A stretch of 64,000 bases of DNA from an uncultured Nitrososphaerota archaeon (lineage in GTDB: Archaea > Thermoproteota > Nitrososphaeria > Nitrososphaerales > Nitrosopumilaceae): positions 480,001 through 544,000 of the forward strand of contig CAWGPD010000004.1 of the NCBI GenBank assembly GCA_963824385.1, written 5' to 3'. Position numbers and translations under genes: made by a program. Positions 2,788 to 64,000 of the stretch are shown here, in pieces. Each line of letters begins with the position of its first letter. Within the stretch, counting starts at the first letter, position 1. The notes under the pieces are model-generated. The model had not been told where the DNA came from, ran no database searches, and was given only the letters and a program-made list of their open reading frames with translations.

Positions 2788-4189
2788 TCACCTGTATTTG
2801 TAATGACTTTCAAATGTATCAGTTTCACGATATCTTGTTTCTTCAACTTCAAGCATAGTCTTCGAGTTGTTCATCGGTCTTGATAGTCAAATTGCGTCCT
2901 GCCCACTTGGAATCTATCAGGTAACTTATCCATGCACGAACCTGATATGACATCTTTCTTGAAAGAGGTTCAAGAAACCCTTCCACAATAATTTTCTGAG
3001 CATCAGATTTGCTCAAGCATCGTGTAGCAAGATAAAAGATCTGTTCCTCATCCATCTGAGCTACTGAAGCAGAGTGTGTTGCCTTGACATCATTTGTGAA
3101 TATTTCAAGCCCAGGTATAGAATCTGACTTGGCTCCCTTGTCCAATAAAATAGAGTGTCCTGAGAGGTATGATTCTGCATGGTGAGCATCTTTCTCAATT
3201 CGTATCATTCCCTTAAAGAGAGATTTTGCTGTATCTTTAAGGACAGATTTTTCTAAAACTCTGCCAATTGTAGATGGAGCATTATGAATCAAATTTGAAG
3301 CAAGATCGTATGATTGGTTTTTGTTTCCAAAAACCACTTCAGTATCTTGTGCAGTTGCGCCAGGACCATTAAGAAAATTATCTACCTTGTATCTAGAAAG
3401 ATGTGAGCCAAACAATCCAAGATACCAGTTCATTCTCCCATCACGCTCTATTCTTGCCACTCTTGAAGAGAAATTAACAGCTGTTTCATCCATTGCTTGG
3501 AGCGTAACCAAGTCAAATTGACTGTTAGAACCTACTGATATATCCAATAATTCAAGATACGCTTGTTGTTTTGTGGCCTGCGGAGCATAAATCTCTTGAA
3601 CAATTGATGCCTTGCTATTCTCCTCTGCCACTATAACATTACGAGATATTGTTGAAGTTTGATCTAGTGAGAGTGATGACACGACATGAATTGCTTTTTC
3701 CAAAATGAGATTTTTTGGGATATAGATAAAAATTCCAGAGTTGAAAAAAGCATTATTTAGTGCAATGTATTTGTCTCTCTTTGAATCAGTTTGTTCAAAT
3801 GACTTTTTTATTTTGTCACCATGATTTTTTATTGCGTCATGGATTGAACATATTACAAGGCCCTTGTCTCTTAACTCAGATGGAATGCTAATTTTATGAA
3901 TATTTGTTCCAATCTGAACTATGCTAGGATTTTCGCCAATTTCCAATAATCTGTCTTTTACAAAATCTGGAATAGTACTGTCAGAGCTTAAAGAGAATGT
4001 GATTTGTTCTGGATCCATCTTGTTTGCATCACTGTACTTGTTGTAAAGAGGAGAGACTTCTTGTGGAAGTTGCTGAAACATTGCAAAAGCATTTTTTCTA
4101 TATTCTTTTAGCCATGCAGGATCATTATTGACTTCAGAGATCTCTTCTATATGATTAGAGTCAAGTTTAGAGAGAACAAAAGATGACAT
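2788..4189 (-). CDS. sufD: Fe-S assembly protein SufD (1-nt insertion at ~2859)
   Basis: SufBD beta-helix (IPGLEIFTNDVKATHSA); restoring AGCT extends the C-terminus to ...LEAMLEVEETRYRETDTFESHYKYR*. Confidence 0.9.
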
Positions 4190-4217
4190 TTCAGATCACA
4201 AATTGACACAATCGGCA

Positions 4218-5618
4218 CTAGCCGACTGAGCCATCCATTTCCATTTTAATCAGCCTGTTGAGTTCTACTGCATATTCCATTGGAAGCTCTTTGGTAAATG
4301 GTTCAATGAATCCGTTTACAATAAGTGTAAGTGCTTCTTCCTCCGTGAATCCCCTTGTCATAAGATAGAAGATCTGTTCATCACCAATCTTACCGACAGT
4401 TGCCTCATGAGTTACTGTTGCGTCTTCTTGGTTAATTTCCATATATGGATAAGTGTCAGTTTTTGATATATCATCTAATAGTAAAGCATCACATCTAACA
4501 GAGGCCTTGACGTTGGTTGCACCCTTTGCTACATGTAAAAGACCTCGATAGGTGGTTCTTCCATTATTTTTGCTGACTGATTTAGATGTTGTTCTAGATG
4601 TGGTATTTGGAGCAAGATGTACCATTTTTGCACCAGTATCTTGATGTTGATTTTTGCCTGCAAATGCAATAGAAAGTGTTTCTCCATGTGCACGTTGACC
4701 TAGGAGATAAATTCCAGGATATTTCATCGTCAATTTACTGCCAATATTTCCATCAATCCATTCTACACGTGCGCCTTCGTATGCATATGCTCTCTTTGTA
4801 ACAAGATTGTAAACATCGTTACTCCAATTCTGAATTGTGGTGTATCTTAATTTTGCACCCTTCATGGCAATCAATTCCACAACTGCAGAGTGCAAAGATT
4901 CGGAAGAATATACAGGAGCAGTACAACCTTCGATATAATGTACTTCTGCACCCTCATCTGCAATTATAAGAGTTCTTTCAAATTGACCAATGTTTTCCTT
5001 GTTGATTCTAAAGTATGCTTGTAATGGTAAATCTACTTTAACTCCTTTTGGAACGTAGATAAATGATCCTCCACTCCATACAGCACTGTTGAGTGCTGCA
5101 AACTTGTTATCTTCTGGTGGTATTACTTTACCAAAATATTTTTTGAAGACTTCAGGATGCTCTTTTAATGCAGTATCAGTATCTAGGAATAGTACACCTT
5201 GTTTTGCAAGGTCTTCTCTGAGATGATGATAAACAACTTCTGACTCGTATTGAGCACCTACACCTGCTAGAAATTTCTTTTCGGCTTCTGGAATTCCTAA
5301 TTTATCAAATGTTGCTTTTACTTCAGCTGGAACATTATCCCAGTCCTTTTCTGTTTTTTCAGAAGCTTTTGCATAATAGTAGATATTATTAAAATCAATT
5401 TGGCCAAGAGAACCACCCCAATTTGGCATGGGTTTTTTCATAAATATGTCATATGAACGGAGTCTAAAGTCAAGCATCCATTGTGGTTCACCCTTCATTC
5501 TGCTAATTTCTTCGACGACTTCCTTTGACAGACCCTTTTTACTAGTGTATACATACATCTCAGTAGAATCTTTGAAATCATATTTACTGTAATCCATGTT
5601 TAGATTCTCAGAAGTCAT
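4218..5618 (-). CDS. sufB: Fe-S assembly protein SufB
   Basis: [24 protein letters not shown] and ELPMEYAVE motifs. Confidence 0.97.
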
Positions 5619-5624
5619 AGTGTC

Positions 5625-5649
5625 TATAACCCCGTTATATTATAAAAAA
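5625..5649 (-). promoter_or_regulatory. sufB TATA box with adjacent palindrome TATAAC-N3-GTTATA
   Basis: TTTTTTATAATA on the minus strand 20-31 nt upstream of the ATG; perfect 6-bp inverted repeat at 5625-5639. Confidence 0.55.
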
Positions 5650-5846
5650 GTTACACCACGCTTCACACTTGTATAGCGGAGTAGGCCAAGCTAAATAGTC
5701 CGAGAAAATAAAATGAAAAAAGACAAGTCATCTAAGAATCTCATTCCAATAACTTAGAATAAGAAATTGCTAACCTTTACGATGAAAGATAGAATTAAAA
5801 ATTATTTTTGGATCATTTTAGACCATTTTATGGTAATGATTCGTAT

Positions 5847-7023
5847 CTAACTCCAAACTTTTTCTTGGAAAGTCCATTTTTTATTTAGTAAGAAATTTCC
5901 TACTGACGCAATAGCGACTGCTAAGAATAACGCAATAGAGTAATTCAAGTGTCGCAATTCAACTAGACCATACACCAGCAACAGTTGAAAGACTGCACCA
6001 ATACCACTAAAACCAAGGAATAATCCATATTGAACCAGTGTTCTTTTTGGATTAAAGTTTCTATCTTCAAATGTCCAGATCTTGTTGAGGACAAAATTAG
6101 AACTCATTGAGAAAACAATTCCTATCATTGTAGCATAGATATACCAAAGATTGGAAAGGACAGCCCCAAACATAAAAGATACAAAATAGTTTACTAGCAA
6201 TCCAGAAGCACCAACAGTATAAAATCTTCCAGCCTTTGACAAGAAATGGACAGATGTACGCTTTTCAGTTGTTTTTACAGATTTACCATATCGATATAAT
6301 TTCCACACAGATTGTAAATAATTAATACATACTGAAAAATCCATCTTGCTTGAACCCATTGTGCGATCAATGAAATTATAAGGAATTTCTTTGACTTTTG
6401 CACCTCGCGCTTTTACAAGAATCTCAAGTAGTATTTTATATCCAATCGCATCAAATTTTATGTTATTTAGAATATGACGTTTGAATGCAAAAAATCCAGA
6501 CATTGGATCTTTAATTTTTATTCCAAGTCCATGTTGAGCAATTTTGGTGGCTCCTTTACTAATTAATTTTCTTTTAAATGGCCAACCTGAAACAGAGCCA
6601 CCTTTCACATATCGTGATGCCACAACAATATCGCAATCAGAATTTTGTAGTTCTTCTATCATTTGAGGTATAGTTTGTGGCGGATGAGATAGATCACTAT
6701 CCATTACGACTACAGCATCACCTTTTGCATGTTCTATACCAGTTACAATGGCAGAACTTAGTCCTCAGCTTGGTCTCACGACGTATTATATGAATAGAAT
6801 AATCATGGTTTTTGGAGTTTTTGGCGTACTCTTCAACAGTCTTACTTGTACCGTCAGGAGAATTATCATCTACTACTATTATTTCAGCATTCATTTCTCG
6901 TGTTAGTGCTGTCCTAAATGAATCAAGTATTTTTACAATATTTTTAGATTCATTATATGTAGGAATAACGATGGAAAGAGATCTTGCTCTACTAGATAAT
7001 ACTTCCTTCTGAATTATACTCAA
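5847..7023 (-). CDS. GT2 dolichol-phosphate-mannose synthase-like glycosyltransferase with C-terminal GtrA domain (frameshift at ~6766)
   Basis: IVIPTYNE, VDDNSPDGT, MDSDLSHPP and DPMSGFF motifs plus GtrA helices; the two ORFs join on removing 1 nt next to AGCT. Confidence 0.9.
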
Positions 7024-7073
7024 GTTGCTTTCTGTTATTTTATGCCTATTTGACCGTTATTAAAATTGTCCAT

Positions 7074-8608: not shown

Positions 8609-9541
8609 TTACTATTCCATTCCTCTACTTTTTCTCTCCAATTTTTTGCAATATCAGAAATTCCCTTTTCTTTAAGTTCTGATGCAACTTGTCTACCAAG
8701 ATCATTTGCCTGATTTATCTCTGAATCTTTTTCCACCATTATAGATTTGCTTCCATCTACAGAATAGACTATTACTTTTAATCGTAGGCGATCATTATCT
8801 TTATGAGCAAATGCTCCAACTGGAAATCTACATCCAGAATCTACAAACATGGAAAGCGATCTTTCTGCTTCTATTGCGTTTCTAGTCTCAGGATCTTCAA
8901 TTTGTCGTAACAATTCAATTAATCCTACATTATCTCTTCTTGAAACAATACCAAGTGCACCTTGTCCAGGAGAAGGAGGAAATAAGTCCATGGAAAGTCT
9001 TTGAAATTTAACATCTAGTCCTAATCTTGAGATTCCAGCTTGGGCCAATACCACACCATCAAATTCTCCGTCATGTACTTTTCGTATTCTTGTTTCAATA
9101 TTTCCACGAATTGGTTTTACTGTAACATCTGGCCTAAGTCTGGTAATCTGAACTGCTCTTCTCAAGCTACTAGTCCCAATAACTGCCCCCTTTTTTATTG
9201 TGTCCAACATACTTCCATCGTTTGCTATAAAGACATCATTTGCCTCTTCTCTTTTTGGAACACATGCTAATACCAAATCATCAGGTAGTTCGGCAGGAAC
9301 ATCTTTCAGACTATGTACTGCAAAGTCAACTCTCTTTTCTGCAACCGCTTTATCGATTTCCTTTTCAAATATTCCTTTTTGATTGATAGTAAAAAGAGGA
9401 CGTGCGTCAGTATCACCTTGTGTCTTGATTGTAATTATCTCAAATTCTGTTTGGGGAGATTTATTTTTTATCTCAGATACTACCCAGTTTGTCTGAGTAA
9501 GTGAAAGCAAGACTACCCCTAGTACCAATTAGATATTTCAT
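8605..9541 (-). CDS. hemC: Hydroxymethylbilane synthase (1-nt insertion at ~9512)
   Basis: VHSLKDVP, GTSSLRR and RGNIETR motifs; repaired N-terminus MKYLIGTRGSLLSL carries the conserved GTRGS. Confidence 0.95.
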
Positions 9542-10875: not shown

Positions 10876-13800
10876 TTAGTGGAGCTGCGACTGGCAATTT
10901 ACAACTGTGTCCTTTGAGGGACTGCCAAGATAGCAAGCATTCTGTCCACTTCCGCCTTGAATTATGTTACTTCCCGTACCGACAAAGACCTGCATGTTTC
11001 CAGATCCTCCTTTTATGACATTATCACCATTGCCTGCATAAATTGTGTTGGTTCCATTTCCAGCATATATGATATTGTTGCCATTACCGGCAATTACACA
11101 ATCTCCAGAAGGACCTTCATGAATTACATCATTACCATCTAGTCCAATTATCAAGTTAGGCACCATTGAACCTGTCAATGAATCGCTGCCATTTGTTCCC
11201 ATTACCAAGTTATAGTCAGAGGATGGTTTTCCACATGCAAGTACTGTAACAGTTTGATCTTGTGTATTTTCATTGCCAAACTTGTCAGTTGCAATCCACT
11301 GGATAACTGTTTTACCGAGTGGAAATAGTCCAGTAGAATTATTAGTTATCTTCGGAGACGTGTCTATAATTCCTGTACCATTGGCATCTCCTATAACTAG
11401 AGGTGTTTCAAATGCAGTTGCATCAGTCACTATGTTCTGAGGAATTGTTAATTGGGGCGGTAATTTGTCGACAACTTGAACTATCTGTGTTGCATTTGCC
11501 GTATTTCCTGCCTCATCTTTTGCTGTCCATACTACAGTAGTATTTCCAAATTGGAATAGTGTTGGAGTATTGTTTGTAATTGTAACTACCTGTACATTAT
11601 CACTACTGTAGCATTTCCAATATTTACACTAGTTCCAGCTGAACTTGTAGCGTTTACTATAACATTATGTGGTGCAGTTATCTTTGGAGCAGTTGTATCA
11701 ACTACATTAATTACTTGAGTAGCATTAGATATGTTTCCAGATAGATCAGTAGCAGTCCATAGTATGGAAGTCTTTCCTAATGGGAATGTCTTTGATGCGT
11801 TGTTGGCAATTGTAACTGGTTGAATATCAGTTGCAGTTGCATTGCCTATTGGTACTGTGTTGTCATTTAATGAAGTAGACTTCAAATGTTATGTTAGATG
11901 GTATGGCTAGTTTTGGAGGAATTGTGTTTAGTACATTAACTACCTGAGTTGTGTTTTCTTTGTTACCTGACTCATCAGTTGCTGTCCACAAGACAGTAGT
12001 TTTACCTAAGGGGAATGCCAATGGAGCATTGTTTGTAATTGCAACTGGTTCTATATCAGATACAAATGGTTTTACTAGTGAAATTGTATTATTATTAAGT
12101 GAAGTAGCTTCAAATGTGATGTTAGATGGTATGGCGAGTTTTGGAGGAATGGTATGAACTACATCTACAATTTGGGTGGCATTTGCCTTGTTACCTGATG
12201 CATCAGTTGCTACCCAGAGTACACTAGTCTTTCCTAACTGGAATTCTGTTGGAGCGTTATTTGTAATTGTAACTGGTTGGAGATCAGTTGCATTGGCACT
12301 ACCTATTGATACTGTATTATTGTTAAGTGAAGTGGCTTCAAATGTGATGTTAGATGGTATGGTTAGTTTTGGAGGAATTGTGTTTTCGACATCGACTATT
12401 TGGGTTGCATTTGCTTTGTTGCCTGCTTCATCAGTTGCTATCCATAGTACCGCAGTCTTTCCTAATGGGAATGTCTTTGATGCGTTGTTGGTAAGTGATA
12501 CTATCTTGACATTGTCAGAAGATGTTGCGTTACCTAATGATGCGATATTATTACCAAGAGAGGATGCTTGTACTGTAACATCTGTAGGAGCAATAATTTT
12601 TGGAGCAGTTGTATCAACTACATTAATTACTTGAGTAGCATTAGATATGTTTCCAGATACATCAGTAGCAGTCCATAGTATGGAAGTCTTTCCTAATGGG
12701 AATGTCTTTGATGCGTTGTTGGCAATTGTAACTGGTTGAATATCAGTTGCAGTTGCATTGCCTATTGGTACTGTGTTGTCATTTAATGAAGTAGCTTCAA
12801 ATGTTATGTTAGATGGTATGGCTAGTTTTGGAGGAATTGTGTTTTTTACCAGTACAGTTTGAGTGGCATTAGATGTATTTCCAGATGCATCCTTGGCAGT
12901 CCATGTGATAGTGGTCAATCCAATTGGAAATTGTTTTGGAGCATCATTTGTAACTGTCACTGGTTCAATGTCAACAACAGTTGGAGTTCCTAATGGAATA
13001 GTATTATTGTTAAGCGAAGTAACTTCAAATACAATACCTGTTGGAACTAGTAATCTTGGTGAAAGGGTATGAACTACATCTACAGTCTGAGTAGCATTAG
13101 ATATGTTTCCAGATAGATCAGTAGCAGTCCATAGTATGGAAGTCTTTCCTAATGGGAATGTCTTTGATGCGTTGTTGGCAATTGTAACTGGTTGAATATC
13201 AGTTGCAGTTGCATTGCCTATTGGTACTGTGTTGTCATTTAATGAAGTACTTCAAATGTTATGTTAGATGGTATGGCTAGTTTTGGAGGAATGGTATGAA
13301 CTACATCTACAATTTGGGTGGCATTTGCCTTGTTGCCTGATGCATCAGTTGCTACCCAGAGTACACTAGTCTTTCCTAACTGGAATTCTGTTGGAGCGTT
13401 ATTTGTAATTGTAACTGGTTGGAGATCAGTTGCATTGGCACTACCTATTGATACTGTATTATTGTTAAGTGAAGTGGCTTCAAATGTTATGTTAGATGGT
13501 ATGGTTAGTTTTGGAGGAATTGTGTTTTCGACATCGACTATTTGGGTTGCATTTGCTTTGTTGCCTGCTTCATCAGTTGCTATCCATAGTACCGCAGTCT
13601 TTCCTAATGGGAATGTCTTTGATGCGTTGTTGGCAATTGTAACTGGTTGAATATCAGTTGCAGTTGCATTGCCTATTGGTACTGTGTTGTCATTTAATGA
13701 AGTAGCTTCAAATGTTATGTTAGATGGTATGGCTAGTTTTGGAGGAATGGTATGAACTACATCTACAATTTGGGTTGCATTTGCCTTGTTGCCTGATGTA

Positions 13801-16171
13801 TCAGTTGCTACCCAGAGTACACTAGTCTTTCCTAACTGGAATTCTGTTGGAGCGTTATTTGTAATTGTAACTGGTTGGAGATCAACTACGTTTGGATTGT
13901 TCAATTGTACAGTATTGTTATTTAGTGATGTTGCTTCTACTGTTATGCTTACAGGTTGTGAAATATGTGGTGGAGTAGTATCAACTACATCAATTACTTG
14001 AGTAGCATTAGATATGTTTCCAGATAGATCAGTAGCAGTCCATAGTATGGAAGTCTTTCCTAATGGGAATGTCTTTGATGCGTTGTTGGCAATTGTAACT
14101 GGTTGAATATCAGTTGCAGTTGCATTGCCTATTGGTACTGTGTTGTCATTTAATGAAGTAGACTTCAAATGTTATGTTAGATGGTATGGCTAGTTTTGGA
14201 GGAATGGTATGAACTACATCTACAATTTGGGTGGCATTTGCCTTGTTACCTGCTTTGTCCAGTGCTGTCCATATTATAGTAGTCTTTCCTAGTCCAAAAA
14301 ATTGCGGAGCATTATTTGTAACTGATTGTATAATTCCATTATCAGTAACGGTTGCATTTCCTAGTGGTACAATGTTTTGATTAAGTGATGTAGCCTCAAA
14401 TGTAACTGTAGACGGTGGAGAAATTTTTGGTGGAGTTGTATCTATAATATTTACAACTTGTGTGGCAGTTGCGGAATTTCCAGATTGATCAGTAGCAGTC
14501 CAAGTTATCAGAGTCTGGCCTAGTGGAAATACCGATGGAGCATTATTTGCAACTGATTCAATTGTTCCAATGGCAGTAACAGTAGCATTGCCAAGATTTA
14601 CGATATTATTAGTTGGGCTAGTTGCTTCTTGTGTTATATCAGGGGGAGCATGAATTACAGGAGGAACCGTATCTTGTACTGTCACAACTTGTGTTGCAGT
14701 TGCGGAATTTCCAGATGTGTCTATTGCCTTCCAGGTTACTGTGGTCTTGCCAATTGGAAAGTATGGAGGAGCGTCATTTGTAACAGATTCTACGCCAACT
14801 GCATCATAAGTAGATGGCACCCCAAGATTCACCGAATTATTGTCAGGAGTAGTTGCTTCAACGGTTACAGGCGGAGGCGCTGTCAATACTGGCGGAGTGG
14901 TATCTTGAACTGTGATTGTCTGTACTGCTTTTGCCATATTACCGGCGTTGTCAATTGCAGTCCATGTTACCATTGTAATGCCTAGAGGGAATTTTGATGG
15001 AGCATTACTAGTAAGGGAAGATATACCAACAGTATCAGTGGCAGTAGACTTGACCAATTGATACTGGTGTTAAAACTCCAGTTGCTTCAATTGTCATATC
15101 TGAAGGAGCTGTAATAGATGGAGGAGTATGATCATTAGGATACAAATTTTTAGTTGCATTACTCTGAGTAGAATTTTGTGTGACTGTTACTTGTGGTGTT
15201 GGATTAATTGTTTGTGTAGGTGTTGGAGCTGGAGGTAAGGGTTGGACAAATTTTTCAATTCTGCTATTGGTAGAGTCTACAACAAAAATATTTCCATTAG
15301 AGTCTACCGCAGTACCTAGAGGATTATTAAATAATCCAGGATCTGTGCCTTGACTTCCCCAAGTTGTAACCGGATCTCCATTATCATCTAACTCAAAAAT
15401 TCTATTATTTCCACTGTCTGCCACATAGATATTTCCTGACTTGTCTACAGATATACCAGTGGGTTGTTGTAGAGCAGCCCCAGTTGAAGCACTAAAAGTG
15501 CTTAAAGATACACCAGTATTAGAAAATTTTTCTATTTTATTTCCTCCTGAATCAGTTACATAGACATTTCCTTGTGAATCTGCAGCAATTCCACTTGCAG
15601 AAAGAAATTGACCGTCATCAAGTCCACTTTGCCCAATATTTTGTAAAAAGTTTCCATTACTATCAAATTTTTCAACTCTGTTATTTCCTGTATCTACAAC
15701 ATACACATCACCAGTTGGATCTACTGCTATTCCTTTTGGAAGTAGAAGTGTACCATTGTTAGTTCCTTTTGTTCCCCATTGTGTTATGTATTTACCAGTA
15801 AGATCAAATTTTTGTACATTAGAATTTGCATTATCAACAACATAGATTGAATCATTGCCAATTGCAATTCCTGCAGGAGAAGTGAATTGGTCTGGACCAC
15901 TACCTTTTGATCCAAAACTAGAAAGAAAGTTTCCATTGGTATCAAATTTTTCTACCCTATCATTTCCAAGATCAGTTACATAGACATTACCTGAAGGGTC
16001 AATTGCTACATCTTGTGGAAATGCAAATTGGGTATGGTTCTGAAATCCGTATGAACCCCATTGGGTCGAAAAAGTAGGAGAGCTAGTTGCCCATGAATAA
16101 CCAACAAACATACTTGATAGTACAATTACCAAAATCCCAATTAATACTGGGTAAGTCTTCAACACATACAA
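10876..16171 (-). CDS. Giant secreted/surface protein (~1,764 aa after repair): signal/TM segment, NHL beta-propeller, ~17 HYR-like Ig repeats and a C-terminal Gly/Asn-rich RTX-like tail
   Basis: Six listed ORFs join into one frame after repairing five indels (~15048, 14162, 13249, 11879, 11606); NHL repeats (GIAVDxxGNVYVxD), FPLGxTxVxWTATD repeats and GGxGN/GNGDN nonamers. Confidence 0.88.
11215..15130 (-). repeat. Intragenic tandem array of ~228-nt (76-aa) HYR units, several near-identical at DNA level
   Basis: ~12110-12490 matches ~13250-13630 (offset 1142); ~11720-11920 matches ~14000-14200 (offset 2283); offsets are multiples of ~228. Confidence 0.9.
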
Positions 16172-16237: not shown

Positions 16238-17018
16238 TTAGAATGGCTTGTTGACTTCTCTTGTGAAGACATAGCTTGCAATGGCTACCATTACTACCAC
16301 AAATCCGCATATTACGGATATTTCTATAGCCGCTGATAATATTTGAGCAGTGCCAGTCATCATCTGCCTAATCAATAACACAGAATAGGTTACAGGATTG
16401 AGTCTTGCAACAAATGCAAGCCAAGACGGTAAGAGTTCCAAAGGAAAGAGAGCAGGACTGAGCATAAACAGAGGCATTCCCAGAAAGTTGATGAGGCCCC
16501 AAAAGGTTTCTTGTGATTTAGATGTGGCAGCTACAACAACAGATATTCCAGAGAAGCCAAGTGAAAATATGATTACAGTCAACAATATTGGAAACACCAT
16601 AAGCAAGTTTGACATATGAACTCCTAACGCAAGTGCAATTCCTAAAATCAAACTTGACTGTAGCGCAGATATCAAGGATATTGCAAGCATTTTACCTAAT
16701 GCAATAGACGACCTAGAGATTGGAGAAACAAGAGACTTTGTTCATGAAACCGTATCTTCGATCCCACAAAGTGTTTACTCCACCGAAAATACTTGTGAAT
16801 ATAGCAGTGAGCATTATCACACCTGGTGCCATAAATTCTATGTAAGAACCGTGAAAACCTACAGACTGAATCAAGGGTCTAGTACTTGCAAATGTGTTAC
16901 CCATAACTATAATCCATATGGCAGGTTGAATTAGTCGTATCAGTATTCCGCTTCGTGATTTCTTGTATCTTTTCATCTCCCTCCAGAAAATAGTATAAGT
17001 ATCCGATATCATCGTCAT
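16238..17018 (-). CDS. ABC-2 type exporter permease (1-nt insertion at ~16735)
   Basis: YIEFMAPG, DRRYGFM and NPVTYSV motifs; the two ORFs join on restoring AGCT. Confidence 0.9.
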
Positions 17019-26636: not shown

Positions 26637-26711
26637 GCGGTTGTAGTATAGACTTGGTTATTATGCGGGATTGCCAATTCTGCGACCCGGGTCCAAATCC
26701 CGGCAACCGCA
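26637..26711 (+). tRNA. tRNA-Gly(GCC)
   Basis: Acceptor GCGGTTG/CAACCGC; anticodon loop TT-GCC-AA; T stem CCGGG/CCCGG (loop reads TCCAAAT). Confidence 0.93.
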
Positions 26712-30247: not shown

Positions 30248-31658
30248 TTGCAAGTGACTAAATCAAAACGAGTAGAATCAAAACCTAGATCTAAAGATCC
30301 TACGCATGATGTTGTCAAAAAAATGTCTTCAATCTCGGATGCTACCAAAATTCTAGCCACTGAAGTAAAAACAATGTCAAAGATATTTGTAGAGAATCAA
30401 AAGATATTGATTTCTTTAAAGGATATGATATCATCAGTAAATTCATCACTTGATCAAATTCAGAAAAATTCAAGACAAATAAACATAATAGAAGAAGATA
30501 CGCAGCGTCTATTTTCTGGGATAAGTCAAGTTAAAGCACATTCCAACATAATAGACAAGATTAACAACCAAATTAATAGACTTCAGGATCACGTAGAAAA
30601 AATTCGAGATAAACAAGAATCCATGCCAGACACCAACAAGATAATGCAAAGTGTTGCAGACAGTATGGATTCTATTAGAAATAACACCAAAATGATAATG
30701 CATGTATCAGAAAAAACTGAAAAAATACGTGAAGAGATCAAAAATGTAGCAGGCGGTAAAGAGTATCTATCAAATCTAAGTAAAGAAATAGAAGAATTAA
30801 GAAAAAGTACAAATGAAATGTCAGCCAAGACAGAATCATTATCTAATTTACATCAAGAAATTGAAGAGGTAAGACAGAATACAAAAGAGATCTCCTCAAA
30901 AACTGAAAAAATGTCAGGATTGGAAGATAGCATATCGAACCTAAAAGGGGAAATAAGTACAATCATTTCCAAAACAGATTCAATTTCAAGACTTGAATGC
31001 CCAGATAAGAAACATAGGCATAGAAATTGATTCAATGGGGAAGAAAACAGATTCGCTATCAGTACTGAGTGATGACATTAGGAACATAAATTCTGAATTT
31101 ACCAACTTCAAAACAAACATCCTTGGAAAGAGTAAAGATCTTGATGGAAAGATAACAGATTTTGCAGAATTATTAAACAGGAATTCATCATCTATCTCTG
31201 AGTTTAACAAGAAAACTTATGAGATTTCTCAGCAATTACAAGATATCAGTCATGTAACTCACAAGACATCTCAGAATACATCACATGAAGTAATGGGATT
31301 GCTGCGGTTATCAGAATTCCAATCAAATATCAGAATGCGTTCTGAATCAAAATATGGTACGTTGGAAGACATTGAGAAAATGGTAAGTCAAACTAAAGAC
31401 ATGATAAATCTGTTTGACCGTATTTCTATAGAGGTAGAAACAAAAATGTCACTGCCCTTCGAAGTAAAACAGTGGAGCATATCAAAGATCTTGGATTGTG
31501 CGGATAGATGGGAGATAAGGTTTACAGATGTGTTTAGACTTTTAATTACAGAACTTGGTTTGGATATTGTAAAAGAAGTAATTAGAATAGAACAAGTTCG
31601 TGATCTTTTTGGAATTAGAGCAGTAGATGAAATAAGACGTGAATTAAATATCTCTTAG
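30248..31658 (+). CDS. Long coiled-coil protein with a globular C-terminal domain (1-nt insertion at ~30991)
   Basis: Heptad repeats (LSNLxxEIEExR); the two ORFs join on restoring AGCT. Confidence 0.8.
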
Positions 31659-31659: not shown

Positions 31660-33682
31660 TCAGTCTGTCATTTCAAAAGATTCTAGTCTTTCCTTTTTCT
31701 TCTTAAGAAGAGCAAAGATTCCAATTATTACTGCGACCCATATACTTCCAAACAACATGTTTGAAATACTGACATACATGTAGGGTGTTGCATCAAGCAA
31801 ATTGAATACTAATGTTGTGGCTTGAGAATGAATGTTAATCATACCTGTATGAAATGCCGCTGTGTCAGGTGAAGTAGTAGATACTTTATCAAGTGTAGAC
31901 AGCATTGTGTTAAGGTCTTTTTGCATCAATCCAAAATCAGTTTCGTCTGTTGGAAATATCCAAACAGGATTTCCAGATTTCGGTACGAGTTGTTGAACTA
32001 ATTGTATATCATCATGAATTACTTGTGGATCAGAAGTCAGCTTGAACCCTAGACAAAATTCCTCTAGATTGGTCAAGCGGGTAAATAATAGTGCTATATT
32101 CCTCAAAAGCCATTACTACGCCTACTACAATTAATCCGAGTATACCAGCCAATGCAGCTTTATAGTAATTATTTGCCATTTTCTCCGCCTTTGTTGCGAC
32201 TCTACTTCTTGATCTGCCTTTTTTAAATGTTGAATGAGATATGCTAAGATATGCAATATAAAGAAACCCAGTTACTTGAATGCCCAATATTGGAACAAAT
32301 ATAGAATTATTGGAAAATATCGCAATAAACATACCCATTATGCCATATACTCCAAAGAATATCTCAAGAAGTGTAGTTTTGGTAAACGGAAGAGCATATG
32401 CCTTGTCTCTCCAATCATCATCATTTTTTATTATTCCAAATTTTGGAGTACGTAAAAATTCATTTTTCTTTCCAAAAAATGCATCAAAGACTGCTACAGT
32501 ATTGTTAACCGACATACCTGCAGAATAGACAATCAAATACAAATAAGAAAGTGCTTTTGATTTCCACTTTTTTTGATACATTCCTTGAATTACCATGATG
32601 TATGCTACTGGCCCCATAGCTAGATATGCAATTACTGTTAATACTGGTAATCCACTTATGATGTAGAGATTTATTTTTGAAGCTAAAAGTATAGGCAAAA
32701 TCAAAAACTGTGCAAGAACTAGTGGGTGCACAATATGTCTTGTAAGTTGAACAAAAGCCTGGATTTTCGTATCAACCGGAATTCTTTTGATTGTAACATC
32801 TCCAAGTAATTTTATGGCACATTGAATAGAGCCTTTTGCCCATCGAAATTGTTGTCTTTTTGCAGAGTTCATTTGTACTGGAAGTTCTGCTTCTACCACA
32901 ATCTCAGGAACAAAGACACATTTCCAACCTTTCATCTGAGCTCTATAACTAAGATCTAAATCCTCAACTAGTGTAGCAGTATGCCAACCACCTGAATCTT
33001 CAATACATTTCTTTCTCCAGATACCCGCAGTACCATTGAAACTCATAAACAGATGAGAATTGCTTTTTGCCTTTTGCTCTATTAAGAAGTGAAAATCAAG
33101 ACTAAGAGCTTGGGCCTTTGTCAGTGGAGAATATTTTTCATTAACATGGCCCCACCTACATTGGACCAATCCAATATTTGGTTTACAGAAATAGGACATT
33201 GCTCTTTTTAGAAACCATGTTGGGGGAATAAAATCAGCATCAAATATGGCAATGAAATCACCTTTTGCAGATTTCATTGCATTTCGAAGTGCACCTGCCT
33301 TGTATCCTTTCCTATCTGACCTTTGAATATGCTGTATATCAAATCCTTTCTTTTGATAGTCTGAAACTAGATTCTCAAGTAGAACTTGAGTCTCATCAGT
33401 TGAATCATCAAGTACTTGAATGGAGAGTTTGTCCTTTGGATAATCTAATGCACAGACTGCATGTATCAATCTAGCAGCAACATACTTTTCATTATATATT
33501 GGAAGTTGAAGAGTGACAGTCGGGATTTCTTTTAGTTCTATAAAGTCATTCTTTTTTTGATGTCTTGAAATTACTACTAGATAATAAAAATTGCACGTAT
33601 AAAGAGTGATAATCAGTGCAATCCATATGAAAACATTCCATAGAAATTGCGATAAAGGACTAGCAAGAATATGTGTCAGCAT
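31660..33682 (-). CDS. Processive GT2 glycosyltransferase (cellulose synthase-like/CslA type) with a C-terminal membrane-anchored domain (frameshift at ~32038)
   Basis: QVLDDS, KAGAL, FDADF, VEDLDL and QQFRW motifs (D,D,D,QxxRW). Confidence 0.9.
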
Positions 33683-33733: not shown

Positions 33734-34688
33734 CTATCCTTTCTTGGATATTTTTATTGCTTGAACAGGACATACGTTTTCACAAGCTAGACAAAATATG
33801 CAATCTGGTTCTCGTGCCATCAATGGTTTTTTATCAGAAGCCGGATTTCCTGCAAATTCAGCCCATTCGTAAACTTTCACAGGACATGCATCAATACATG
33901 CACCATCCCCTACACAAACATCATAATCAACTGATACAAATTCTCCCCAGATTCCCAGTATTTCATTACCCTTTCGGTGGCCGAATACTTTTATCTTGTG
34001 ATTAGATGGAGCAGTAAAAGTCTCAACGACTTTGAGTTTTGATTTAAAGTCCACATCAATTGGACCAGGCTTTGCTCCTGAAGGTGTCTCAGGCTCTGCT
34101 TCTTGTGCAACTTGTTGTCCTGGCGGAGGAGCCGCAGGCTTTGGTTTTGGTTTTGCATTTGGAACAATCTGAGACTAGTGGTGTGAGTTCCTCTAATTCT
34201 TTTAATGCTTGCTCAGGTGTTAATTGTTTCATTTTCACTCCATGCTCTACCATTTTGTCAGCAAGTACACTATTTCTTAGAATTGTATCAATAACCATTT
34301 TTGCATTGGCATCTGCTTTTCTCCTATAATCTTTAACCCAAAGTCCATCTCCATATTTTTCAACTGGATAAATTTGATAAATCATGTCCACGACTTCGCC
34401 AGTTACTATCTCGACTTGAACTTCAAGATCAATTTCCTTGTATCCACTATCATCTGGATCTGGTAAATTTTCTTCTTTCCAACGATACGTTGCATAAACT
34501 CTATCAGCAAATTTATCCATTTCAAAAACTTTCTTAAATCCACTAACTATAGAATCAATTTCATAGGCATCTTCTAGTTTTACTGGAAGACGATAAAGAC
34601 CTAGCTTGTAACTGTGTAAAGGATATACTCCTCTTTTAGATGTGGCTGATTGAACTGTATACACCTTATCCTTTAGCAGGAGGGACAT
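33734..34688 (-). CDS. Multi-domain ferredoxin: unknown N-terminal domain, Pro/Ala/Lys linker and dicluster ferredoxin (1-nt insertion at ~34174)
   Basis: CVGDGACIDACP and CIFCLACENVCP; repair gives a continuous 317-aa frame through PNAKPKPKPAAPPPG. Confidence 0.85.
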
Positions 34689-41813: not shown

Positions 41814-42500
41814 TTTGAAACCTCAATAGAAGCAGTACCCTTTGTTACCGATCCTAATCTGTCCATTACATTTGCTCTTGCCGCCGCCGGTATATCTAGT
41901 ATTACTTTGAGTCCACCGTTTGATTGCCATTCTTCTTTTTTCAAAGTTCCAAAGGACTTTAAAACAGAATAAGATTGTGCGGCAAATTGAGCCGGCACTA
42001 GAATTTCTAGAAGCATATTTTCAGACTTTAACGGAATTATCGATCGAAGTTGTTCTATTATTTCTTTTATCTGTTCATCAGTATTTCTAAAAGGATCAAC
42101 TGATACCCTTGCATCATCCATAGACTTGTTCTATCCTAAGTGGAGGATGCGGAAGATGGGATCTTGGATCAACATAGCTTTTAGCAATAAAGTCTACTAT
42201 TTGTTTACGTTTCTCAGACACCATCTTTCTTCGCTGATCAGTAGTAAGATTCAGTTCTCCTTTTTCAAGCATTATAGTAGCAATTACATTTGAGTCAGTG
42301 GTTTTGAATGCCTTCATAAGTTTCTCTGTAGATGCCCTTGTTCCTTTATTGGAATCAGTGTAAATCTCATCTGAAATCAATACTCCAGAGATGTCCTTAC
42401 GCTTACCTATCTTAAATTCCAAAGCAGGATCTGGTTTTACCAATATTTCGAACTTTTCTCCTTCTACTGAGAACCTCACGACTGTTACTTTGGTATCCAT
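41810..42500 (-). CDS. Ribosome maturation factor SBDS/Sdo1 (1-nt insertion at ~42124)
   Basis: FEILVKPD and PHPPLRIEQAMDDA after repair. Confidence 0.94.
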
Positions 42501-42585: not shown

Positions 42586-43222
42586 TTGACTTCTTTAGAG
42601 ATTGTTGAGGAAAGTGGTAACAATATGGTTGTAAAATTGAAAGGCATACCTATTCAATATGCTAATGCACTTAGACGAATTTGCCTATCAGGAATTCCCA
42701 CATTTGCTATCGACGATGTTGTAATTATTGAAAATTCATCAGTTTTGCCTGATGAAGGAGTAGCTCATAGACTTGCAATGATGCCATTAAAAACAGATCT
42801 TGAGAGATTTATTGAGCCATCCGCATGTGACTGCCATAGTGAACTTGGTTGTAGTCGATGCAGAGTCTTACTTATGCTTGATTCCGGCAGTACAGATACA
42901 ACTCGTACAATAACTTCAGCAGAAATTAGCTCAGAAGATGAAGTTGTAAAGCCTGTTAGTCCTAACATTCCAATTGTTGCACTCAGCTCCTAGTCAGAAA
43001 TTAAAGGTTGAAGCATATGCAAGATTAGGCAGAGGCAGTGATCATGCCAAATGGAATTCTGCCACAGTCTCAGCCCTTACATCTACAAATAATCCCGATG
43101 AACATGTTTTATTGATAGAGACTACAGGTAGTTTGACCCCAAAAGAGGTTCTAAGAGCAGCCATTGAAGAGCTTGAAAAAAGATTAGGCGAATTCCAGAA
43201 GAACGTAGCCGCACTCGGTTGA
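42586..43222 (+). CDS. rpoD: RNA polymerase subunit Rpo3/D (frameshift at ~42984)
   Basis: ANALRR, NSSVLPDEGVAHRL and HAKW motifs. Confidence 0.95.
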
Positions 43223-43610: not shown

Positions 43611-44083
43611 ACAAGTTACCGAAGTAAAATCATTAGAGAAGAATCCAGCTTCACAAACAATCATAGTGGATGGAACAAATTTAATTGCAGGTAGACTTTG
43701 TTCGCATGTTGCCAAACTACTCATAAAAGGAAATAGAGTATCAATTGTAAATTCTGAAAATATCATGATTTCGGGAGATAGAAAAGCAATCATAGAAGAA
43801 TATAGAAAGTTTTTGGAAGTAGCTAGTATCAATAATCCTAAATTTGGTCCATTTCATCCTCGTAGACCAGACACTATCATAAGCAGAATGGTAAGAGGAA
43901 TGCTACCAAAGAACAAGCCATCAGGTAAGACATCTTTGAAAAGATTAAGAGCTTATCTCGGAGTACCAAATGAATTAAGAATCAAAGAAGACAACACAGT
44001 TCGATGATGCAAAAATTAGAAGACCTTCTCCATATTATACAACTCTGGGAGAATTAGGTAAGATGGTTGGGTGGCACGAATAA
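43603..44083 (+). CDS. rpl13: 50S ribosomal protein uL13 (1-nt insertion at ~43981)
   Basis: GPFHPRRPD and VRGMLP motifs; restoring GATC gives the C-terminus ...TTLGELGKMVGWHE*. Confidence 0.95.
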
Positions 44084-47777: not shown

Positions 47778-49048
47778 TTCAAATCCCTCGGATCAGTAAT
47801 CTTTCCTGTTATAGCAGATGCTGCTGCAACAAGTGGAGATGCAAGATATGTCTGAGATTCCACATGCCCCATTCTTCCTGGAAAGTTTCTGTTTGTAGTA
47901 CTGATACAAATTTCATCTTTTGCCAATACTCCCATATGAGCACCGCAGCAGGCGCCACAGGTAGGAGGTCCTACAACTACTCCAGCATCTAAGAAAATTT
48001 TCAACAATCCTTCTTCCATGGCTTTTCTAAATATCGATATTGCCGCAGGTAACACCTCAGTTCTTATTTTTACAGTTCGTCCCTTGAGAATTTTTGCTGC
48101 AGCTCGTAAATCTTCTAGCTTTGCACCAGTGCATGAACCAATGTATGCTTTATCAAGTTCAATTGAAGACAAGTCACGTGCAATAGCAATATTTTCAGGA
48201 GAGAATGGTTTTGCTACAGTTGGTTCTATTTCTGAACCTTCATACTCGTAAATTTTTTCATATTGAGCATCTGCATCACTATGAACTTCGTCATATTTTG
48301 TAGCTCCTTTTGCTGCAAGATAATCTCGTAATTTTTGGTCTGGTTCAACTATACCACTCTTGGCACCTGCTTCGGTTGTCATATTTGTTAGTGTCAATCT
48401 ACCTTCAACTGACATTTCGGATATGCCTGTACCTCCAAATTGCATTGTCTTGTATGCTGCACCATCATTTCCAATGTCTCCAATTATTTTCAATATCAAA
48501 TCTTTTGCCATCACATGATCTGGAAGTTTTCCATTTCACTTAAAGTATAATGTCTCAGGTACCTTGAACCAAATTTTACCATTTAATAAAACATATGCAA
48601 CATCTGTATGTCCAAGACCTGCCGCAAATGCCCCAAGAGCACCTGTAGTATTTGTGTGAGAATCTCCTCCAACATACACTTCTCCTGGAAGCACCATGGC
48701 TTCCTCGTGAGACAAAGTATGACATATGCCATATTGACCCATTCCATATTTGAAATGCTTCTTAATTCCAAATTGTTTTGTAAAGTTTGTTAGTGATACA
48801 ATATTTTGTGCTGATATTTTATCGGCTGCAGGTACAAAGTGATCTTCTGCAACCCACACTCTATCTGGATTCCATAATTTTTCAATTTTCATTCCAGTCT
48901 TCTTCAATTTTTCAAAAACTGCTATTACTCCTGGTCCAGATACATCGTGAATCATCACCTTATCAACATTAACAAAAATCACGTCTCCGGGGGAAACCTT
49001 TGATTTTCCAGAAGCACGGGCTAGGATCTTTTCAGTAATATTCAACAT
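47774..49048 (-). CDS. Second aconitase-family large subunit (homoaconitase/IPMI type); in-frame TGA at 48536-48538 is probably a miscalled CTA
   Basis: Both ORFs are in the same frame; GDSHT, GSCTG, CGAC and NRNFPGRMG motifs. Confidence 0.9.
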
Positions 49049-54754: not shown

Positions 54755-55713
54755 TTGAAAATATTACTTACGCGAAGGCTTCATGATTTTGCTGTAAAGG
54801 AACTCAAAAAGAAATACGTTGTAGAAATCCACACTGGAAAGATTCCTATGCCAAAAAAATTACTGATATCAAAAATCAAGGATAAAGATGGCCTAATCTG
54901 TTACCCTTATGATTTCATAGATGCTGACGTAATTAATGCCGGGATTAAACTTAAGGCAATTTCTACCTATAGCGTTGGTTATGATCATATAGACATCAAG
55001 ACTGCTACGAGTAGAGGTATTACAGTTGGTTATACGCCAGAAGTATTGACCCGAGCTACTGCAGATATGACTATGGCTTTGATGTTATCTCTTTTTAGAA
55101 GAATACCTGAAGGTAACCAGATAATTCGCAAGGATAAATGGAATATAATATTTGGTCCCTATGATTTTCTTGGAACAGATCTATATCAAAAAACTCTAGG
55201 CATATTTGGAATGGGAAGAATAGGAAAAGCAGTAGCAAAAAGAGTGCAGGTTTTGAGATGAAGGTAATTTATCATAACAGAACTAGATTATCAATCAAGG
55301 AGGAAAAAAAAATAGGAGTAAAATACGTATCATTGAATAATCTTTTTAGAACAAGTGATGTTGTAAGTATTCATTCTCCGCATACACCTCAAACACATGA
55401 AATTGTGAATTTAAAATTATTAAAGAAAATGAAAAGAACTTCATTTTTAATTAATACTGCGCGTGGCAAAATAATTAATGAAAAAGATCTTGCAATTGCA
55501 TTACAAAGAAAAATAATTGCAGGAGCTGGACTTGATGTATTCCAAAAGGAGCCAATTAATTCCAAACATCCAATTGTAAAAACAAATAATTCTATACTAA
55601 CACCTCATAGTGGAAGTGCTACGATTGAAACTAGAAAAGAAATGGCAGAGATTGCAGTCAAGAATCTAGTACTTTCACTTGCTGGCAAAAAACCAATTTA
55701 CCAAATTAAATGA
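54755..55713 (+). CDS. D-2-hydroxyacid dehydrogenase/glyoxylate reductase (1-nt deletion at ~55244)
   Basis: GMGRIG, INTARG, LDVFQKEP and TPH motifs. Confidence 0.92.
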
Positions 55714-55732
55714 TATAATAATTAATTTAAAA

Positions 55733-57330: not shown

Positions 57331-57373
57331 TGATCTGAAAATACCATAGAGAGATTAATGGATTTGTAAAAGG

Positions 57374-57472: not shown

Positions 57473-57531
57473 ATTTATCTCGCCAATTCAATTTCGTTGT
57501 AAAACCGACTATATATTACTGTAAGAGATGA

Positions 57532-58619: not shown

Positions 58620-58625
58620 AAAAAA

Positions 58626-59384: not shown

Positions 59385-59801
59385 TTTAATCCCTTGACAA
59401 GTTCTTTTACTCTAATTTCTATCCCATCTCTTATCTCTCGAACTTTCTCTATTGGCTTGTCTTTAGGATCCTCAATTCCCCAATCTACATACCTACCAAG
59501 AATAAGAGTTGGACATTCTGCAGTATCCATGCATCCCATATTCACCTTCAATTCTGCACCTCGGATTTGTTCATCAGATAACCTCTTTGCCTTGTGATTG
59601 CTGATATCTACTCCAGTCTTCTTTCATTACCTCTATTGCAAGTGGATTAACATATGATTTTGGAACAGAACCACCACTCATTGCACTCCAACCCTTTGGG
59701 GCATATTTTCTAAAGAAACCTTCTGCCATCTGACTTCGTCCAGCATTTTCTATGCATGCAAACAAGACATATTTTTCTGGTTTTTTCCCAAACAATCCCA
59801 T
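59381..59801 (-). CDS. arsC: Second arsenate reductase (1-nt insertion at ~59617)
   Basis: CIENAGRSQMAEG; repair continues ...MGCMDTAECP...DWGIEDPK... to a TGA overlapping the arsM ATG. Confidence 0.9.
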
Positions 59802-59874
59802 TGTATCTCTGACATTAGTTTAGTCAGTAAACCATTTAAGTTGTCAAGGATAAACAATTACAGTTAGTGTAAAG

Positions 59875-60255
59875 ATGGAAACTAAAAGAAAATCACTTCC
59901 AATGGTTAAAGATAGTTGTAGTTTTGAAGGATATGATGCCTCTTCATTAATGTCTGAAACATCAAAGCTGAGAAAAATAATTACAAAAAGGGGCACACTT
60001 GAAATTCTAATTCCATTATGTTGTACGACAGAACCAGTACGCCATAAAGAATTCAAACAGGCATTAAAGGGGATAAGCAGTAAGACTCTTGCCATCAGAT
60101 TAAAAGAACTTGAAAAAAGTGGAGTGTTAGAAAGATTATCTTATAATGAAATTCCTCCTAGGGTGGAATACAAGCTAACTAACAAAGGGCAAGAACTTGT
60201 TGAGTCCATGATTAATCTTTTGCAATGGATGAAAAAATGGTCTAAATCAAAATAG
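59875..60255 (+). CDS. HxlR-family winged-helix regulator, divergent from the ars operon
   Basis: GISSKTLAIRLKELE and EIPPRVEYKLT motifs. Confidence 0.9.
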   Translation: METKRKSLPMVKDSCSFEGYDASSLMSETSKLRKIITKRGTLEILIPLCCTTEPVRHKEFKQALKGISSKTLAIRLKELEKSGVLERLSYNEIPPRVEYKLTNKGQELVESMINLLQWMKKWSKSK

Positions 60256-60291
60256 ATATTGCCTAGAATTGAGTGTTTTTCATTTTAAAGA

Positions 60292-60741: not shown

Positions 60742-60766
60742 TTGAAAAATTTAATTTGATTCCTTT

Positions 60767-61765: not shown

Positions 61766-62321
61766 AGTAGTATTTCACTGCATTTTTTGCCTGTTCAAGA
61801 ACTTGTTCAGGTCCAAGATCATCTGTATTTATTATTTTATCAAAGACAGAAAGGTCTTCTCCAAAATTAAAATCATAAAGCTTCTTGTATAATGTCTTAT
61901 TTTCATCGTATCTCTTTTTTACTATTCCCAATGCGTCTTGTAATGATATACTATCTCGCATTGTCATTCTTTTTGCACTATTTTCATGAGAACCTGCAAG
62001 CCAAATTTTAATTCCGTCTTTAACTAACCAAGGCAATGTGTCACTTGTTATGATTACATCTTCAGTTAGAAATATTTTTTTTAATTTTTCGTCAACTTCT
62101 TTATCAAATTCTGAATTTGCTTTTCTGATATTAAGAAAACTCATTCCTTCTGACGTATCCCAAAAATCATCATTATCTGTTTCAAAGCCTTGTTCCTTGG
62201 CCATTTCTTTTAGCACATCACCACCGCTAAGATATTTCAAGCCAAATTCTTCTCCCAATCCTTTTGCTATGGTAGTCTTTCCTATGGCTGGTGGACCAGA
62301 AATTATAACTGAACGAAGCAA
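61737..62321 (-). CDS. cmk: Cytidylate kinase
   Basis: SGPPAIGKTT; secY-adk-DUF106-cmk-cbf5 gene order. Confidence 0.88.
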   Translation of the reverse strand: MLRSVIISGPPAIGKTTIAKGLGEEFGLKYLSGGDVLKEMAKEQGFETDNDDFWDTSEGMSFLNIRKANSEFDKEVDEKLKKIFLTEDVIITSDTLPWLVKDGIKIWLAGSHENSAKRMTMRDSISLQDALGIVKKRYDENKTLYKKLYDFNFGEDLSVFDKIINTDDLGPEQVLEQAKNAVKYYYDTQTITKS

Positions 62322-62322
62322 T

Positions 62323-62956
62323 TTAACTTGTATCCATTGTAGTTTTTGTAACTCTCATTATGATACCACTAAAGGAGGCAGACGATAAGAAGTACCATGC
62401 CCAGAAATACAAATCGTTTACATGATGACAAATGTTGGGATTACCAGGAATTTGAGAAGATGCTACTTTTGCCGCAGTACAAGTTAATTCAAAAAATCCT
62501 CCAGGTATAATGTTTAACGATATTGGTGCAACAGACTACTGTATAGGAAAATAGTGGAGGAAGCACAAAATAGAATACTAGAATCAATGGGAGAAAAGTA
62601 ATCATCATAGGTCTCATATTCATTTGCATAACTTCCATGTTCATCTTGTTCATGTATGCAGATTTCTTGTTAAGCTCATCAGTTTTTTCTTGATCTTTTG
62701 ATTTGAATGCAGCCATTCTTTCCTTTTGCCAAGCTCTTGTTTCTTTGAGTAATCTTTTCAATTTATCTTGGTCAACCATCTTTCGTTTTATTATAGCATT
62801 AAGCAGATTAAGACCAATAGAGATACACATTATTCCTAAAGCAGCTGGAACCATTCCCTTTACTATCGGATTTGCACTTCCCATTGGACCCCTGTTTAGA
62901 CCTGGGATTTGTAGTGCTATTGTATTTATGAAATCAAAGAATATACTATGTTCCAT
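62323..62956 (-). CDS. DUF106/EMC3-TMCO1 (Oxa1 superfamily) membrane protein (1-nt insertion at ~62535)
   Basis: TM, coiled coil and MRPMMITFLP; repair restores the WAWYFL C-terminal helix. Confidence 0.88.
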
Positions 62957-63536
62957 TGTTAAACCCCATTGCACTTAGGATACCTCTAGCCGCTTCATCA
63001 ACCTTACCCTCAGTATTAAGAACCATCTTGATTGGTGAGCCACAAAGTATTGAACAAGTAGACAACATTGCACTTGTAACATCAAGTTCTTTTTTTATTG
63101 CATCAATTGATACTATATCTCTAGTTCGGGTAGTGTCTGTCATTCTACGATTATAGATCTCTTCGGGTCTTGCCGATATCATAATAAAACTATCAGGATT
63201 GAGTATCTCTAAAACATTTTGTGGAAGTCCAGGATAGAATCCCTCCTGCGTAGAAATGAATGCATGAGTATCTACAATCACTACATCATCAGAGATTGAA
63301 GCTATTGTTCTTGCTGCCATAGATTGCAATTCTCTTTGCTCTTTAACTGAAAGTTTTCTTAGATCATCCCTATTCTGAACTCCTTTCTTTTTAGCTTCAT
63401 CAAACATCACGGTTCCAAAAATTGAGACGCTTACTTTGACATTTTTCTCTTTTAATAATTCCACTACGCGTGATACAACTGTAGTCTTTCCAACACCTGG
63501 AATTCCTACAATTATTACTCGATTACTTTCTGCCAA
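62946..63536 (-). CDS. adkA: Adenylate kinase, archaeal type
   Basis: GIPGVGKTT, VDTH and GFYPGLP motifs. Confidence 0.94.
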   Translation of the reverse strand: MAESNRVIIVGIPGVGKTTVVSRVVELLKEKNVKVSVSIFGTVMFDEAKKKGVQNRDDLRKLSVKEQRELQSMAARTIASISDDVVIVDTHAFISTQEGFYPGLPQNVLEILNPDSFIMISARPEEIYNRRMTDTTRTRDIVSIDAIKKELDVTSAMLSTCSILCGSPIKMVLNTEGKVDEAARGILSAMGFNNGT

Positions 63537-64000
63537 GTAATGCACCCAGTGAAGGCATTACTTCTTCGACTCTTTCTCGAACAAGTAAATTGTAATAGTT
63601 AATCAGAATATCAACTGTCAACAACATTCCTGTCCCTGATCCAAATGTTCCTAGTACATCAGAAGTACCAGCTAACAATCCAAGTATCATAGAACCAATT
63701 ATAGTAACGGATGGAATATATTTTTGAAGTAGATTTTCTACTGGTTGATTTGAACGTCTAAAACCTGGAATTTGTACGTCAGCGTCAAGTAAGTTTTTGG
63801 CTGCACTCTTTGCAGAAAGACCACCAAGCTCAATCCATAACCTACCAAATAAGACTACAATTCCTATCATAAATAGAATATACAAAACAGACTCTCATTG
63901 GATCTAATGCAACAATATCCAAACCACGTGGTGCTGTAACATAGTACAGTATACCACCTGTTGGAGTGGATGGTGATGTAGGATCAAACATTCCTAAGAA
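63523..64000 (-). CDS. secY: Preprotein translocase SecY, C-terminal part (5' end outside the window; 1-nt insertion at ~63891)
   Basis: QIPGFRR and GSGTGMLLTV motifs. Confidence 0.95.

Follow-up and report, generated by a model that had tools for sequence, protein, structure and literature searches.

Why should the reading frames of one stretch of archaeal DNA fail again and again at the same four-letter palindrome? The stretch analysed here, the window, comprises 64,000 nucleotides (positions 480,001 to 544,000 of contig C4) of G000, a 1.68 Mb, five-contig genome assembly rated 86% complete. Archaeal AmoA (PF12942) is encoded in G000 and falls in a 90% cluster whose named members include Nitrosotalea, so that the organism is an ammonia-oxidising archaeon, most likely of that genus. 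An original prediction, made from the letters of the window, held that 20 frame disruptions within it, 19 at AGCT and one at GATC, were nanopore miscalls at modified bases. The explanation that we regard as highly probable is that the breaks are long-read errors linked to motif methylation, that the affected genes are intact, and that an orphan beta-class methyltransferase is responsible for AGCT and a Dam homolog for GATC.

Frame breaks within the window

All 20 predicted words were found at their positions, 19 of the AGCT type and one of the GATC type, and a single in silico edit to AGCT or GATC extended the open frame at every one of them. Measured on the shorter side, the gain was from 44 to 104 codons at 42122 and from 9 to 172 at 48536, and it was small at 2857 and 9510, both of which lie close to gene ends. 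When the sites were aligned to up to four relatives each (G041, G074, G072 and G024), a one-base length difference was present in at least one relative at 19 of the 20, and the motif itself at 17. The list of 20 stood, but it had overlooked one further site, at 26650 within a tRNA-Gly gene, and the presence of AGACT within a tRNA gene excludes any translation-based account of the pattern. The window also holds 149 intact copies of AGCT.

The claim that essential genes are hit (rpoD, secY, SBDS and rpl13) was borne out by Pfam matches, the essential genes affected being single-copy. Those to Rpo3/RpoD, SBDS, a LeuC-type aconitase, a GT2, an ABC2 permease and a 2-hydroxyacid dehydrogenase are split over two open reading frames (ORFs), and L13 and SecY are each represented by one fragment that begins or ends at the break site. 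The predicted coexistence of intact and broken sites in near-identical repeats was likewise found, five HYR copies with identical flanks reading AGACT twice, ACT once and AGCT twice, and G074 has AGCT at all three of the broken copies. The sites are as follows, with words as they read on the forward strand and no strand assigned to the sites themselves.

2857..2861: AGTCT for AGCT, Rieske gene 5' end / sufBD end; AGCT in G041, G074 and G024
6765..6770: TCAGCT, extra base, GT2/GtrA gene; AGCT not seen in relatives
9510..9514: AGACT for AGCT, close to hemC start; relatives, Pfam, frame edit
11605..11607: ACT for AGCT (one base lost), NHL/HYR surface-protein gene; relatives, frame edit
11877..11881: AGACT, HYR repeat copy; relatives, repeat comparison
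12793..12796: AGCT intact, matching HYR context (internal control); repeat comparison
13249..13251: ACT, HYR repeat copy; relatives, repeat comparison
13704..13707: AGCT intact, matching HYR context (internal control); repeat comparison
14160..14164: AGACT, HYR repeat copy; relatives, repeat comparison
15046..15050: AGACT, extra base; AGCCT in relatives, AGCT presumed; frame edit
16733..16737: AGACT for AGCT, ABC-2 permease gene; relatives, Pfam
26650..26654: AGACT for AGCT within tRNA-Gly(GCC), gene 26637-26711; AGCT in 3/3 relatives
30989..30993: AGACT for AGCT, coiled-coil gene; relatives, frame edit
32037..32042: TCAGCT for TAGCT, GT2 gene; TAGCT in 4/4 relatives, Pfam
34172..34176: AGACT for AGCT; AGCT in 4/4 relatives
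42122..42126: AGACT for AGCT, SBDS; relatives, Pfam
42983..42988: TCAGCT for TAGCT, rpo3 (rpoD); relatives, Pfam
43979..43983: GAATC for GATC, rpl13; GATC in 4/4 relatives, Pfam
48536..48540: TCACT for TAGCT, in-frame TGA, LeuC-type aconitase gene; gap-free TAGCT in 3/4 relatives
55243..55245: AGT for AGCT, 2-hydroxyacid dehydrogenase gene; relatives, Pfam
59615..59619: AGTCT, extra base, low-molecular-weight (LMW) phosphatase/ArsC-like gene; AGCT not seen in relatives
62041..62045: TCACT against TAGCT in G041, cytidylate kinase-like gene, candidate frame-neutral miscall; relative, Pfam
62533..62537: AGACT for AGCT, EMC3/TMCO1-like gene; relatives, Pfam
63889..63893: AGACT for AGCT, secY; relatives, Pfam, and AGCT also at metagenome locus L234

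Once its breaks are bridged, the run of NHL beta-propeller and HYR repeat fragments between 11400 and 16300 forms one large surface protein, the repeat number of which is different in G041. The LMW phosphatase/ArsC-like gene adjoins an arsM-like Methyltransf_31 gene, the pair lying within 58626-59801, and G072 gives no alignment across 57691-60290.

Breaks across the genome and between assemblies

At the scale of the whole genome, G000 was compared with G041, which was taken whole (1.55 Mb) and to which 1,385,390 bases of G000 aligned at 90.4% identity. Between the two there were 2640 indels, and the 778 kept were isolated, well flanked and of a length not a multiple of three; 308 of them break a G000 frame, 26 break a G041 frame, 434 are in no ORF of 100 codons on either side and 10 were unassigned. 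At least seven of the 24 short G041 'breaks' listed were judged by eye to be G000-side AGCT forms misassigned by the script. G041's own sequence carries AGCT at 138 of the 308 G000 breaks, against 7.9 expected (Poisson p about 4e-117), and GATC at 21, against 7.7 expected. Scored from the G000 side, 207 breaks (67%) fit AGCT, where about 31 would be expected at random places, 34 fit GATC and 67 fit neither; the statement that nearly every break sits on AGCT is therefore true of the window, at 19 of 20, but overstated for the genome. Among the wrong forms AGACT leads with 71 cases, followed by a base inserted next to the word (54), AGTCT (40) and the loss of a base (25). Insertions account for 260 of the 308 breaks and homopolymer slips for just 10, and in all 238 of the 1322 aligned ORFs (18%) are broken.

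A count of one-base gaps over four-letter words, which does not depend on ORFs, also ranks AGCT first, with gaps at 187 of 3654 sites (5.1%) against a median rate of 0.56%; GATC has 47 in 4799. Most AGCT sites are correct, with 197 of the 2259 conserved ones (8.7%) affected, and the errors along the genome show no departure from an even spread over 16 bins (p 0.15). With the AGCT events removed, GATC becomes the top word (24 against 5.0 expected among 82 insertions), and no third motif was found among the remaining 53 insertions after correction for 136 tests. CTAG, TCGA and ACGT had seemed enriched and were rejected, being at background level among insertions once AGCT events were removed.

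Miscalls that leave the frame unchanged were also directional, AGCTA being replaced by AGTGA in 26 cases against two in reverse (p 3e-6) and AGCTT by AGTCT in 23 against seven, and the CTA-to-TGA change in AGCTA context makes up five of the 28 in-frame stops listed. Single-base substitutions at AGCT showed a mild asymmetry (1.2 to 1.5) that lies within the range of control words, and they were not used. By k-mer counts AGCT is not depleted (ratio 1.01) and AGACT/AGTCT is not visibly enriched (1.02), so that the footprint is invisible from composition alone. The words under-represented genome-wide are CTTA/TAAG (0.67), GATC (0.73), GGCC (0.76) and GTAC (0.76).

In the reciprocal control, an extra base was found at 152 of 3654 AGCT sites in G000 against five of 3217 in G041. 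AGCT stands at background in G041 (background 0.20%, AGCT rank 93 of 136 words), yet that genome encodes the same candidate AGCT methyltransferase at 95% identity. The other three relatives, compared over 240 kb (G074), 198 kb (G072) and 50 kb (G024), each have an AGCT excess of their own in the stretches compared (16 of 488, 6 of 452 and 5 of 110 sites, respectively), and their errors take the same letter forms as those of G000. An enzyme without the excess in one relative, together with the excess in three others, indicates that the pattern tracks the assembly rather than the lineage. A public metagenome contig at secY (locus L234, 94.6% identical) shows five isolated single-base gaps when aligned to G000. 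At four of these it reads AGCT, and the remaining one is the AGACT of G000 at 62533; the metagenome scan gave this one contig only round the secY site and no match round the SBDS site. G074 is a poor species representative: it is 72% complete in nine contigs, has many non-motif indels besides its AGCT excess (G074:C3, loci L120, L121, L126 and L127), and carries several indels in its methyltransferase copy.

The number of contigs and the error load of G000 point to a long-read assembly, most likely nanopore. Comparison with sequencing runs gave 20 holders in 10 studies, with a best share of 0.96-0.98 of sampled words, and three runs were flagged as a possible source; a share of 0.96-0.98 fits reads that lack the error words and equally fits coverage gaps, and it was not counted as evidence.

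Two candidate methyltransferases

The two error motifs are matched in G000 by two DNA amino-methyltransferases, both encoded outside the window. A search of the genome for an N4-cytosine enzyme yielded an intact gene of the SPPY beta class at C4:401980-402825, whose 283-residue protein has TSPPY preceding DPFVGSG (beta order, motif IV before motif I) and matches PF01555 (E 2.7e-42) and PADLOC MTase_II (E 7e-70). SPPY is typical of N4-cytosine enzymes. The neighbours are DHQS II, a 67-residue ORF, Alba and a 101-residue ORF; no cognate endonuclease was found in the 1.5 kb flanks, where the two small ORFs have no PADLOC match, and AGCT is not avoided in the genome. The gene is classed as a putative orphan beta-class methyltransferase. 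The adjoining DHQS II gene (L011 57-895, near 401197 of G000:C4) is itself split by a two-base insertion directly after AGCT.

A search of all six frames for motif IV, among segments at least 80 residues long, gave seven matches, two of them within DNA methyltransferases, and no DNA amino-methyltransferase was found in G000 beyond the SPPY enzyme and the Dam homolog. A second PF01555 match (C2:191735-191923) was rejected as an RMKL-like/UPF0020 methyltransferase without motif IV. Neither a C5 methyltransferase (PF00145) nor DndC (TIGR03183) was found in the 86%-complete assembly, ssp and the other dnd genes not having been searched.

Within the genus, the candidate AGCT enzyme is present in 61 of 63 genomes, and none of the 33 near-complete genomes lacks it. 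In family f15, 25 of the 26 genomes have a homolog of about 50% identity, with DHQS II adjoining in the four f15 loci examined. Relatives of one syntenic f15 homolog (47% identical) are found at 84-94% identity in genomes labelled Nitrosocosmicus, the genus of strain MY3, considered below. In the other genera of G000's own family there is an enzyme match in 10 of 27 genomes, and the four mid-identity loci examined have no DHQS II neighbour. Two homologs (L137 and L141, in G166 and G132) are 45-51% identical, likewise without a DHQS II neighbour, and their open frames of 445-469 codons suggest an extra domain. Plasmid-encoded matches are distant (29-35% identity among the matches listed) and the best match in the PDB has an E value of 1.6e-23; specificity is fixed by neither.

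The Dam homolog lies at C3:101675-102422 (L013 1347-2214), scores 205.7 bits against the TIGR00571 cut-off of 114.85 and has the DPPY motif; PF02086 was found in 33 of the 35 genus genomes searched. The gene has amoA immediately upstream, and the ORF that comes after it, of 179 residues, matches AbiTii weakly in PADLOC (E 2e-12). Compared with the Dam-family D12 adenine methyltransferases, it is above the cut-off and retains DPPY, but it has a one-base break; the excess of errors at GATC suggests an unbroken gene in the living cell.

Probable methylation-linked errors and their alternatives

Both literature premises of the original prediction were confirmed in published work. AG(m4C)T and G(m6A)TC methylation is reported from ammonia-oxidising archaea (PMC6329791, PMC8919816, PMC11033074): in Nitrosarchaeum BD3, GATC is modified as m6A at 98.2% and AGCT as m4C at 96.0%, with two matching enzymes and, in that text, neither motif listed within a restriction system (PMC6329791); in two marine Thaumarchaeota metagenome-assembled genomes AGCT is methylated at 82-91% (PMC8919816); and a REBASE-based table gives AGCT m4C and GATC m6A for N. 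catalina SPOT01 and strain MY3, the accompanying text once reading AGTC (PMC11033074). These methylomes have the same two motifs as G000, each with one type II methyltransferase, but they were measured by single-molecule real-time (SMRT) kinetics, whereas the motifs of G000 are read from assembly errors alone. Motif-specific nanopore errors at modified bases have also been described (Chiou et al. 2023, PMC10687267; Hammerhead, PMC11610603), and as in G000 they concern short motifs, are lineage-specific and are exposed by close genomes. The published cases are bacterial and mainly mismatches, whereas those of G000 are mostly one-base insertions that break frames, and AGCT does not occur in the main text of either paper. 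Among the titles and abstract openings covered by the literature searches, no AGCT methylation in Nitrosotalea and no AGCT indels in archaeal assemblies were found.

The proposed mechanism draws on four things seen here: breaks clustered at motifs, relatives whose frames are intact, assemblies that differ in their error load, and the genes of two enzymes. The orphan enzyme at C4:401980-402825 would methylate the AGCT palindrome, giving most likely AG(m4C)T in both strands, and the Dam homolog would turn GATC into G(m6A)TC. The modified base would disturb base calling, and a wrong call would survive consensus at roughly 9% of AGCT sites and 1% of GATC sites. Such calls would take a small set of fixed forms: an extra base between G and C (AGACT/AGTCT) or next to the word (AGCTGA/TCAGCT), or the loss of G or C. 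A combined insertion and loss (AGTGA/TCACT) could mimic a TGA stop. On this explanation the breaks would have arisen in the consensus of an assembly from long reads, most likely nanopore ones, and the genes would be intact in the cell. We infer the platform, m4C as the type of mark and the assignment of enzyme to motif from assembled sequence. The original inference of intact genes, an AGCT modification, a weaker GATC one and enzymes outside the window is very probably right.

Several observations weigh against this explanation. At 6765, 15046 and 59615 the relatives give a length difference only, AGCT being presumed at these sites, and G072 has the identical TCACT at 48536, which we read as one miscall made twice but which may be a shared real change. 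The 67 breaks that match neither motif are left aside by it. The Dam homolog carries an extra base that is absent in all four relatives, and although the form of this break matches the common AGCTGA error, three of the four relatives read GAGCGA, so that there may be no true AGCT at that place. The Listeria errors described in PMC10687267 are mostly mismatches rather than indels. The G000 enzyme is a candidate counterpart of M.NspBD3I, M.Nca01I and M.Mma5219II by its presumed motif, and in an assembly rated 86% complete further enzymes could be missing.

Some of these points favour other explanations. The errors could be artefacts of an AGCT mark other than m4C from the SPPY enzyme, such as m5C, a phosphorothioate, a bulkier base or the product of an enzyme missing from the incomplete assembly. 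This is consistent with the predominance of insertions, in contrast to the mismatches published for Listeria (PMC10687267), and with the unclassified, low-ratio AGCT modification reported in Ca. Poseidoniia (PMC8919816). We nevertheless consider it unlikely, given that neither PF00145 nor DndC was found in the assembly, that the sole unassigned enzyme is intact, carries its SPPY and DPFxGxG motifs in the beta order and is nearly universal in the genus, and that AGCT is typed as m4C in related archaea (PMC6329791, PMC11033074). A base caller or polisher that is weak at unmodified AGCT, with methylation not involved, would account for an error rate that varies with the neighbouring bases, between 2.9% at AAGCTT and 20.6% at GAGCTA (chi-square p 2e-9), and for the recurrence of the same forms in three other assemblies of the genus. 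However, the two enriched words are the two motifs for which methylation has been typed in related archaea, they correspond to the two enzymes that G000 encodes, and other palindromes fall to background after removal of AGCT events, which makes this explanation very improbable.

Least probable of all is that the indels are real, arising by motif-targeted mutagenesis, phase variation or programmed frameshifting at AGCT. The TCACT shared with G072 speaks for it, and true pseudogenes probably make up part of the 67 other breaks and of the 28 in-frame stops. Yet real indels would have broken 18% of the aligned ORFs, including rpo3, secY, rpl13 and SBDS; +1, -1 and stop forms are mixed, and no single recoding rule mends them all; a tRNA gene is affected; G041 has the enzyme and no AGCT excess; AGCT itself is not depleted; and the errors show no departure from an even spread.

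The breaks are almost certainly one-letter sequencing errors, and with methylation-linked errors as the preferred explanation the pattern combines a known class of artefact with a known methylome, an indirect addition with no new biology. Its main value is a quality warning, for G000 and for three other species representatives of the genus that have the same fault: the false frameshifts and false TGA stops could be taken, in an important nitrifier, for pseudogenes, lost genes or recoding. The roughly 18% of broken genes probably also explain the 14% shortfall in the completeness estimate. For the biology of the group, the two-motif methylome would be indirectly extended to Nitrosotalea, with a named candidate enzyme. 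The DHQS II-adjoining enzyme is found in both the genus and family f15, and is patchy and non-syntenic in the other genera of G000's own family. A tentative interpretation, to which we give somewhat less than an even chance, is that AG(m4C)T may belong to the core of soil ammonia-oxidising archaea as a mark without restriction, serving housekeeping or regulation much as Dam or CcrM does in bacteria. Its footprint would then be legible in public long-read assemblies with no need of raw signal, so that archaeal methylomes could be surveyed from assembly errors alone.

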